A DNA stretch of 64,000 bases from assembly GCF_024502345.1 (NCBI RefSeq), contig NZ_JALDNN010000001.1; one strand, 5' to 3'. The translations under genes were made by a program, and so were the position numbers. The DNA is from Escherichia coli. Its GTDB lineage: Bacteria > Pseudomonadota > Gammaproteobacteria > Enterobacterales > Enterobacteriaceae. The stretch's first letter is position 1. Every line of letters begins with the position of its first letter. Under the pieces are notes generated by a model. The model had not been told where the DNA came from and did not search any database. It worked only from the letters and a program-made list of their open reading frames with translations. Of the stretch, positions 4,670 through 7,495 are shown in pieces.

Positions 4670-5701
4670 ATGTCTGCATTTACCCCGGCAAGTGAAGTCT
4701 TGCTGCGTCACAGTGATGATTTCGAACAAAGCCGTATTCTGTTTGCCGGAGACTTACAGGATGACCTGCCCGCGCGTTTAGATACCGCGGCCAGCCGTGC
4801 TCATACCCAGCAATTCCACCACTGGCAGGTGTTAAGCCGCCAGATGGGGGATAACGCCCGTTTTAGTCTGGTCGCCACGGCGGATGACGTCGCAGATTGC
4901 GATACGCTGATTTACTACTGGCCGAAGAACAAACCGGAAGCCCAGTTCCAGTTGATGAATTTACTTTCTCTGCTGCCGGTGGGGACGGATATTTTTGTCG
5001 TTGGCGAGAACCGCAGCGGCGTGCGCAGCGCCGAGCAGATGCTGGCAGATTATGCGCCGTTGAATAAAGTCGACAGCGCTCGTCGCTGTGGACTCTATTT
5101 TGGTCGTCTGGAAAAACAGCCAGTATTTGATGCGGATAAATTCTGGGGCGAATACAGCGTCGATGGCCTGACGGTCAAAACGCTGCCTGGCGTGTTTAGC
5201 CGCGACGGTCTGGATGTCGGTAGCCAGTTGCTGCTCTCGACGTTAACTCCGCACACGAAAGGTAAAGTGCTGGATGTCGGCTGTGGCGCGGGTGTGCTTT
5301 CAGTTGCCTTTGCGCGCCATTCGCCGAAAATTCGTCTCACCTTGTGCGATGTCTCTGCCCCGGCGGTAGAAGCCAGCCGCGCAACACTTGCGGCCAACGG
5401 TGTTGAAGGTGAAATCTTTGCCAGCAACGTCTTTTCCGAGGTGAAAGGTCGTTTTGATATGATCATCTCCAACCCGCCGTTCCACGATGGGATGCAAACC
5501 AGCCTGGATGCGGCGCAAACGCTGATTCGCGGCGCGGTGCGTCATCTTAATAGCGGCGGCGAGCTGCGAATTGTAGCGAACGCCTTCCTGCCTTACCCGG
5601 ACGTGCTGGATGAGACATTTGGCTTCCATGAAGTTATCGCGCAAACCGGGCGCTTCAAGGTGTATCGCGCCATTATGACCCGCCAGGCGAAGAAAGGTTA
5701 A
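4670..5701 (+). CDS. rsmC: 16S rRNA (guanine1207-N2)-methyltransferase
   Basis: 343-aa ORF with SAM-binding [11 protein letters not shown] and NPPFH motifs. Confidence 0.9.
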
Positions 5702-5714
5702 TTATCTCGCCGAA

Positions 5715-5850
<136 letters not shown>

Positions 5851-5968
5851 TCCTGATGGACATTTTTCCAGCAATTACACATCAGGCGATAATTAACTAT
5901 TGACGAAAAGCTGAAAACCACTAGAATGCGCCTCCGTGGTAGCAATTCTTTTTAAGAATTGATGGTAT

Positions 5969-6055
5969 GCGAAGGTGGCGGAATTGGTAGACGCGCTAGC
6001 TTCAGGTGTTAGTGTCCTTACGGACGTGGGGGTTCAAGTCCCCCCCCTCGCACCA
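5969..6055 (+). tRNA. leuQ: tRNA-Leu (anticodon CAG)
   Basis: 87-nt sequence gcgaaggtggcggaattggtagacgcg...tcgcacca with CAG anticodon loop and long variable arm; first of three tandem copies. Confidence 0.9.
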
Positions 6056-6083
6056 AAAACCACGTTGATATTGCTCGCACTGG

Positions 6084-6170
6084 GCGAAGGTGGCGGAATT
6101 GGTAGACGCGCTAGCTTCAGGTGTTAGTGTTCTTACGGACGTGGGGGTTCAAGTCCCCCCCCTCGCACCA
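6084..6170 (+). tRNA. leuP: tRNA-Leu (anticodon CAG)
   Basis: Second tandem copy; differs from copies 1 and 3 by one base (tgttctt vs tgtcctt) in the variable region. Confidence 0.9.
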
Positions 6171-6204
6171 AACGAGGCGATATCAAAAAAAGTAAGATGA
6201 CTGT

Positions 6205-6291
6205 GCGAAGGTGGCGGAATTGGTAGACGCGCTAGCTTCAGGTGTTAGTGTCCTTACGGACGTGGGGGTTCAAGTCCCCCCCCTCGCACCA
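6205..6291 (+). tRNA. leuV: tRNA-Leu (anticodon CAG)
   Basis: Third tandem copy, identical to copy 1. Confidence 0.9.
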
Positions 6292-6329: not shown

Positions 6330-6566
6330 TCATCCCTGATTCAAATTCATTATCATCAGCATGATGCCAGCAATAAGCGCCAGGCACGATGGTAGCAAAA
6401 TGTAATGCCGCAACTGTTTGTGATACAGCATCACCGGCGTCAATACTAATCCCATCAGAATTACAATCCGCCACTGATCCGGCGATAAATCCGCATACAT
6501 CAGCCCTGCAATCAGCAATCCCGGCAGCAACACTCCCCAGCCACTGCCCAGCGTACGTTGCAACAT
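6330..6566 (-). CDS. yjjZ: Small membrane protein YjjZ
   Basis: 78-aa hydrophobic product from the internal Met (MLQRTLGSGWGVLLPGLLIAG...) of the 115-aa track ORF, in the fhuF-leuV gap. Confidence 0.55.
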   Translation of the reverse strand: MLQRTLGSGWGVLLPGLLIAGLMYADLSPDQWRIVILMGLVLTPVMLYHKQLRHYILLPSCLALIAGIMLMIMNLNQG

Positions 6567-6706: not shown

Positions 6707-7495
6707 ATGGCCTATCGTTCCGCACCGCTCTATGAAGATGTCATCTGGCGAACACATCTCCAGCCGCAGGATGCTGGGCTTGCACAAGCCGTACGGGCGA
6801 TGATCGCCAAACATCGTGAACATTTGCTCGAGTTTATCCGCCTGGATGAACCCGCTCCGCTTAACGCCATGACGCTGGCGCAATGGTCATCACCGAATGC
6901 GCTAAGTTCTCTACTGGCGGTCTATTCCGATCATATCTATCGCAACCAACCAACGATGATCCGCGAGAACAAACCGCTGATCTCACTATGGGCACAATGG
7001 TATATCGGCCTGATGGTGCCACCATTAATGCTGGCGCTACTGACGCAGGAAAAGGCATTAGATGTGTCGCCGGAACATTTCCATGCTGAGTTTCACGAAA
7101 CCGGACGCGTCGCCTGTTTCTGGGTCGATGTGTGTGAAGATAAAAACGCAACACCACATTCGCCGCAGCATCGAATGGAAACGTTAATCAGCCAGGCGCT
7201 GGTTCCGGTTGTGCAAGCACTAGAAGCGACCGGAGAGATCAACGGCAAACTTATCTGGAGTAATACCGGTTATTTGATCAACTGGTATCTCACTGAGATG
7301 AAGCAACTGCTCGGCGAGGCTACTGTTGAATCGCTGCGTCATGCCCTCTTTTTTGAGAAAACGCTCACGAACGGTGAAGATAATCCACTCTGGCGTACCG
7401 TGGTGCTACGCGACGGCCTGCTGGTGCGCCGCACTTGCTGCCAGCGTTATCGCTTACCGGATGTGCAGCAATGTGGCGATTGTACGCTGAAATGA
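6707..7495 (+). CDS. fhuF: Ferric-siderophore reductase FhuF
   Basis: 262-aa ORF ending in the 2Fe-2S Cys cluster CCQRYRLPDVQQCGDC. Confidence 0.9.
   Translation: MAYRSAPLYEDVIWRTHLQPQDAGLAQAVRAMIAKHREHLLEFIRLDEPAPLNAMTLAQWSSPNALSSLLAVYSDHIYRNQPTMIRENKPLISLWAQWYIGLMVPPLMLALLTQEKALDVSPEHFHAEFHETGRVACFWVDVCEDKNATPHSPQHRMETLISQALVPVVQALEATGEINGKLIWSNTGYLINWYLTEMKQLLGEATVESLRHALFFEKTLTNGEDNPLWRTVVLRDGLLVRRTCCQRYRLPDVQQCGDCTLK

Follow-up and report, generated by a model that had tools for sequence, protein, structure and literature searches.

By its sequence and gene order, the triplet of tandem tRNA-Leu(CAG) genes in the window, the whole 64-kb (64,000-nt) stretch of Escherichia coli DNA analysed here, is the leuQ-leuP-leuV operon, and its middle copy, which differs from both neighbours by one base, is the normal leuP allele. 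Very probably, this difference reflects a near-neutral change from a C-G to a U·G pair in a stem that the synthetase ignores, inherited from an early ancestor of the Enterobacteriaceae and since shuffled by recombination.

Screening the whole window with ARAGORN returned three tRNA genes, all of them tRNA-Leu(CAG) and all on the plus strand. The genes, the spacers between them and the variant base are arranged as follows:

5969-6055, plus strand: leuQ, tRNA-Leu(CAG), with C at nt 48 (window position 6016); identical to K-12 leuQ
6056-6083, plus strand: spacer 1, between leuQ and leuP, 28 nt; identical to K-12, kept across genera and distinct from spacer 2
6084-6170, plus strand: leuP, tRNA-Leu(CAG), with T at nt 48; identical to K-12 leuP (b4369)
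6131, plus strand: the variant base, T in leuP and C in leuQ and leuV; its pairing partner is the G at 6138
6171-6204, plus strand: spacer 2, between leuP and leuV, 34 nt; identical to K-12 and kept across genera
6205-6291, plus strand: leuV, tRNA-Leu(CAG), with C at nt 48 (window position 6252); identical to K-12 leuV

Each gene is 87 nt long, and in a three-way alignment 86 of the 87 columns were invariant, the sole difference being column 48 (C at 6016 and 6252, T at 6131). The first-pass annotation, which had described three tandem copies with the middle one off by a single C-to-T difference and had quoted the two versions as gtgttagtgtccttacgg and gtgttagtgttcttacgg, had read the letters correctly. 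All three genes scored 48.5 bits against the Rfam tRNA model RF00005 (cmscan; gathering score 29), a score that was the same with or without the leuP variant, and in each of the three copies ARAGORN placed the anticodon cag at position 35 within a 7-nt loop.

Two other features are common to the three genes. An A·C mismatch, flagged by cmscan, occupies acceptor pair 5 (nt 5/79; window positions 5973/6047, 6088/6162 and 6209/6283); this pair is G·U in Morganellaceae homologues and C·C in the Lelliottia/Huaxiibacter group, and is non-standard in 9 of 22 distinct tRNA-Leu(CAG) sequences. Each gene also contains a run of eight C (6040-6047, 6155-6162 and 6276-6283) that spans the 3' strand of the T stem and extends into the beginning of the 3' acceptor strand. 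The run is one C shorter or longer in some public assemblies (e.g., seven C in locus L128), and these length differences could reflect either genuine indels or errors in sequencing a homopolymer.

The locus was recognizable from its neighbours, which, together with a promoter-like site, are:

4670-5701, plus strand: rsmC, 16S rRNA m2G1207 methyltransferase, a 343-aa ORF, likewise annotated at the corresponding position in K-12 and in further E. coli
5900-5927, plus strand: promoter-like site, TTGACG, a 16-nt spacer and TAGAAT followed by a G+C-rich stretch; the best consensus match in the region (10/12)
6330-6566, minus strand: yjjZ, a DUF1435 protein (78-aa translation) and convergent downstream neighbour, annotated within the matched region of E. 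coli genomes
6707-7495, plus strand: fhuF, siderophore-iron reductase, a 262-aa ORF, annotated in K-12 and others, with homologues in the loci of other genera

The same order holds in K-12 MG1655, where rsmC precedes the array on its own strand and a convergent yjjZ, then fhuF, follow it, and there the counterparts leuQ (b4370), leuP (b4369) and leuV (b4368) lie between rsmC and yjjZ/fhuF. A 551-nt query laid over the triplet matched 5425 of 5426 complete E. coli genomes, and the features annotated under the match were three tRNA-Leu genes and yjjZ. Within these 551 bases, K-12 differs from the window by seven substitutions, all outside the tRNA genes and both spacers; K-12 thus shows the same C, T, C pattern with identical 28-nt and 34-nt spacers, and the 87-nt K-12 leuP is identical to the second copy in the window, including the T at nt 48. 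Between rsmC and leuQ lie 267 nt in the window and in K-12; other Escherichia have 193 nt there, and E. albertii has 303 nt. REP-like palindromes (e.g., cggatgcggcgtgaacgccttatccg and gccagataagacgcgccagcgtcgcatctggc) lie between rsmC and the promoter-like site, at 5702-5860.

The promoter-like site is sigma-70-like and lies 41 nt upstream of leuQ. Its position, along with the published promoter of the tRNA-Leu1 operon (which PMC2190699 cites as its reference 36), makes it the putative leuQPV promoter. No intrinsic terminator was found 3' of leuV on the plus strand. Both results agree with published work, according to which leuQPV transcription is terminated by Rho and the three tRNAs are separated by RNase P (PMC2190699).

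As for the origin of the odd base, a single C-to-T transition within a repeated sequence is a typical site for errors and new mutations, and these very genes hold a published mutational hotspot, the 8-C run being an indel hotspot in mismatch-repair-defective E. coli (PMC8510543). A recent mutation specific to this strain, or a sequencing or assembly error, nonetheless has next to no chance of being the explanation, given that the same T is present in leuP of K-12 MG1655 and at the same gene position in many genera. In addition, a 61-nt probe centred on the T was matched exactly in 4755 of the 5429 matched E. coli records, showing that the T is not a sequencing error; with K-12 leuP, these records rule out both an error and a private mutation. 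By the first-pass annotation's own reckoning, the variant would be ordinary if reference leuP genes carried this base, and since alignment to the reference leuQPV showed K-12 leuP to carry it, the variant is just that. It is also an already known allele: two papers give leuP as one base different, among them a preprint that sets (leuP) apart from (leuQ leuT leuV) (bioRxiv 10.1101/2020.02.21.958157). An older paper drew all four Leu genes as identical, which shows how minor the difference is considered to be.

The variant lies within the variable region (nt 45-59, 15 nt), which consists of a 4-bp stem and a UUAC loop:

6129-6140, plus strand: variable-arm hairpin of leuP, with stem pairs G46-C57, U47-A56, U48·G55 and C49-G54 and the loop UUAC (cmscan, ARAGORN)

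In linear numbering the change is C48U, and it converts the third pair of the variable stem from C-G to a U·G wobble, nt 48 facing nt 55 in the cloverleaf. The earlier assignment to the variable-arm region was therefore right and can be refined to the stem rather than the loop; as for the folding check proposed at the time, the cloverleaf places the base in a paired position. For either form, the minimum-energy fold of the whole tRNA was not the cloverleaf, and energies were therefore evaluated on the cmscan/ARAGORN cloverleaf and on the isolated arm. The isolated arm adopted the same minimum-energy hairpin in the C-G, U·G and U-A forms, with energies of -5.2, -2.3 and -2.8 kcal/mol, respectively; for the whole cloverleaf the corresponding values were -30.0, -27.1 and -27.6 kcal/mol. 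Thus, the U·G arm of leuP is predicted still to fold, albeit about 3 (2.9) kcal/mol more weakly than the C-G arm.

Among 22 distinct Enterobacterales tRNA-Leu(CAG) sequences, pair 48:55 was C-G in 13, U·G in 7, U-A in 2 and unpaired in none, and the entire variable stem was 100% paired. Both U-A cases are compensated versions of the U form; one is the Tenebrionibacter middle gene, the other the gene that comes first in Xenorhabdus indica. In Lelliottia, Huaxiibacter and their relatives (loci L083, L088, L106, L112 and L029), the genes without U48 carry U49 (pair U49·G54), so that these arrays have one variable-stem wobble pair per gene.

The predicted gap of about 2.9 kcal/mol in stem stability is one of the points in favour of the main rival explanation, namely that the U48·G55 isodecoder is functionally distinct (e.g., in stability, processing, modification or fragment production) and is kept by selection; we consider this distinctly unlikely. 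One point against it comes from what is known of leucine identity in E. coli. The identity elements are A73, the A15-U48 Levitt pair, G18 and G19, with tertiary elements of the D and T loops, and the variable arm is reportedly disregarded by E. coli LeuRS; according to the same review, the sequence and folding of this arm show no correlation with leucylation, and its structural variation is tolerated (PMC9976931). The corresponding bases, A84 (the discriminator, preceding the encoded CCA), A15, G18, G19 and U59 (canonical position 48), occur unchanged in each of the three copies. With the identity elements and the anticodon unchanged and the variable arm ignored, the U form should be charged by LeuRS and decode CUG like the C form; it is from the sequence that we infer its expression, charging and stability. 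Like isodecoder tRNA genes in general, leuP shares its anticodon with its sister genes and differs in the body, here by one base at a tolerant paired site.

Within E. coli, array types were counted by BLAST with five 95-nt junction-specific queries, which, being shorter than 100 nt, fall below 99% identity with a single mismatch; the resulting counts of array types are bounds rather than a census, and they count genomes rather than independent events. Spacer 1 followed by a Leu gene was found in 4976 E. coli genomes, from which it follows that about 450 genomes have fewer than three genes. Spacer 1 followed by the C version matched at 99% identity or more in 564 records, 453 of which were partial matches from genomes without spacer 1, leaving about 111 exact cases of a middle gene with C (564 - 453). 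Combined with the 61-nt probe, which left 674 of the 5429 matched records without T, the counts indicate that at least about 220 E. coli genomes have kept spacer 1 and yet have no T. Conversely, T was present in the first gene in 60 E. coli records and in the gene after spacer 2 in 61. At least seven array types occur at leuQPV among E. coli strains (loci L002-L005 and L127-L131), given here as the base at nt 48 in each successive gene:

C/T/C: the window and K-12
C/C/C: strains 63-2 and B7A
T/T/C: strain S30
C/T/T: Nissle 1917 and ATCC 25922
T/C, two genes: strain 2015C-4136CT1
C/C, two genes: strain 1324KP
a single C gene: O157:H7 ATCC 43888 and strain UTME-4

Four further O157:H7 records have three Leu(CAG) matches per genome in total, as does ATCC 43888. 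The two-gene T/C array (L128) rules out the notion that genomes without spacer 1 never carry T.

Such an assortment is what gene conversion and unequal crossing-over would yield between tandem genes that are nearly identical; these processes probably produced the array types, and through them site 48 would occasionally have been erased, spread or deleted in E. coli. Since losses and gains of T are of roughly the same order of magnitude, the counts argue against strong selection within the species. The idea that selection keeps a distinct isodecoder is weakened in particular by the 674 records without T, by O157:H7 ATCC 43888, which has a single C gene at the locus, and by the spread of T to neighbouring genes about as readily as its loss. 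The first-pass annotation had left two readings of the difference side by side, a tolerated polymorphism and a long-standing isodecoder difference. The former is borne out by these records and by the T in the first or third gene in some 60 records each; the latter also holds, as described below.

The fourth gene, leuT, encodes the same tRNA-Leu(CAG) as leuP, and in E. coli it is identical to leuQ and leuV; it sits in a different operon and, unlike leuQPV, is reported to be processed by RNase E and not RNase P (PMC2190699). A query for the hisR-leuT junction with C matched exactly in 5385 of 5429 matched E. coli records; with over 99% of genomes thus having C in leuT, it is the leuQPV array, and not leuT, that is marked by the T in this species.

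To trace the variant beyond E. coli, we scanned one genome per species, requiring the T form with a partner G or A, and obtained at least 120 loci; being selected for T, the scan maps the presence of the variant and says nothing of species that lack it. The T-bearing loci listed fall in two contexts, rsmC-linked Leu arrays and argX-hisR-leuT-proM operons. In the former, rsmC is followed immediately, on its own strand, by one, two or three Leu(CAG) genes, and RsmC identity to the protein encoded in the window ranges from 99% down to 54%; nearly all listed arrays lie just downstream of rsmC in this way, the few exceptions being on short or incomplete loci, and in the Enterobacteriaceae yjjZ is convergent downstream. 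Among the matches listed, the arrangements in other species were:

C/T/C: 33 of 46 three-gene arrays, in 12 named genera of Enterobacteriaceae, among them Escherichia (3 species), Salmonella arizonae, Citrobacter, Klebsiella, Raoultella, Enterobacter, Kosakonia, Phytobacter, Pseudocitrobacter, Pseudenterobacter and Intestinirhabdus
C/TA/C: at least 1 array, Tenebrionibacter
T in the third gene: at least 8 arrays, in Lelliottia, Huaxiibacter, Trabulsiella, Pluralibacter, an Enterobacter MAG and strain RIT714
T/C, two genes: at least 17 arrays, mostly Xenorhabdus and Photorhabdus
C/T, two genes: at least 8 arrays, mostly Morganella and Proteus
leuT with T: at least 39 operons, in many genera including Escherichia whittamii (loci L007, L009, L011 and 36 others)

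All listed argX-hisR-leuT-proM loci from other Enterobacterales carry T in leuT, T being a requirement of their retrieval. Among these T-selected loci from other species, U48, which is the minority form in E. coli, equals the C form in frequency.

Spacers 1 and 2 are each recognizably kept across genera and are unlike each other, so that the three genes are positional orthologues and the T between the two spacers is most simply explained as inherited. The C/T/C order in 12 genera with conserved spacers, like K-12, where leuP has T and leuQ, leuV and leuT have C, thus marks leuP as a long-standing isodecoder. Conserved synteny, conserved spacers specific to each gene and the recurrence of this order in many genera would together place the C/U/C arrangement in an ancestor of the Enterobacteriaceae.

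A different history, in which the T arose many times independently by recurrent C-to-T change at a tolerant site instead of descending from a common ancestor, is unlikely, although several observations point that way. The T occurs on differing backbones and at differing positions (in the first gene in Xenorhabdus and Photorhabdus, the second in Morganella and Proteus and the third in the Lelliottia group); it is present in leuT of many genera, not of E. coli; and the adjacent C49 shows a like C-to-T wobble change in other lineages. Both nt-48 forms of the Morganellaceae share the acceptor-stem changes A5G and C79U, which counts against the favoured explanation in that it calls for concerted evolution passing over site 48 or else for repeated C-to-T change. 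Against recurrence, the gene with T is flanked by orthologous spacers 1 and 2 in 12 named Enterobacteriaceae genera, for which a single origin is simpler, and movement of the T between genes is explained by gene conversion, as seen in the T/T/C and C/T/T arrays of E. coli.

The same distribution also bears on selection. The persistence of C/T/C at orthologous positions across genera, although conversion is demonstrably active in E. coli, could point to a selected isodecoder, as could the finding that nearly every listed multi-gene array with T keeps at least one C gene. The Morganellaceae forms that differ at nt 48 while sharing A5G and C79U can be read likewise, as can Tenebrionibacter and Xenorhabdus indica, which went from U·G to U-A with no reversion. 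However, the cross-species sample was itself selected for the presence of T, and Lelliottia, Huaxiibacter, Trabulsiella and Pluralibacter have the T in the third gene, some with a wobble at the neighbouring pair instead. Nothing here requires selective maintenance, and we favour inheritance of a near-neutral change, with C48U having, in all likelihood, little or no fitness effect.

One further lead concerns the spacers. A segment of spacer 1 (6065-6077, UUGAUAUUGCUCG) is complementary to a segment of spacer 2 (6173-6186, CGAGGCGAUAUCAA), and folding 6056-6204 to minimum energy pairs them into a predicted 13-bp leader-trailer helix, interrupted by one bulge, with leuP inside it. In a set of 26 distinct arrays, drawn from about 20 genera, 89% of the cells of this helix were paired, compared with 27-54% in slid controls, and two of its pairs occur as C-G, U·G and U-A. 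Its covariation was not above that of shuffled alignments, 229 of 500 shuffles reaching the observed number of pairs changed on both sides, and the putative helix is therefore only a lead; it is absent from the paper on RNase P processing of these tRNAs (PMC2190699).

A bolder and very unlikely proposal would have the C48-G55/U48·G55 difference be an ancient dimorphism that is actively maintained across the Enterobacterales and has survived concerted evolution because the U form, owing to its weaker arm, differs in some property (e.g., its stability, its processing kinetics or the production of fragments); relatedly, the complementarity of the spacers would be a functional leader-trailer helix controlling the processing of the middle tRNA. 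Were the dimorphism indeed selectively maintained, it would be a rare bacterial case of functionally distinct isodecoders.

As a discovery, the variant has little value, for it is the textbook leuP allele found in published descriptions of the E. coli tRNA genes. Its uses lie elsewhere. The T is a natural marker that separates leuP transcripts from those of leuQ, leuV and leuT in tRNA sequencing, and reads have already been mapped to leuP as a reference sequence of its own in the preprint cited above (bioRxiv 10.1101/2020.02.21.958157). Furthermore, with at least seven array types in one species, leuQPV, as a tandem tRNA array, offers a small and clean system in which gene conversion and unequal crossing-over can be followed.
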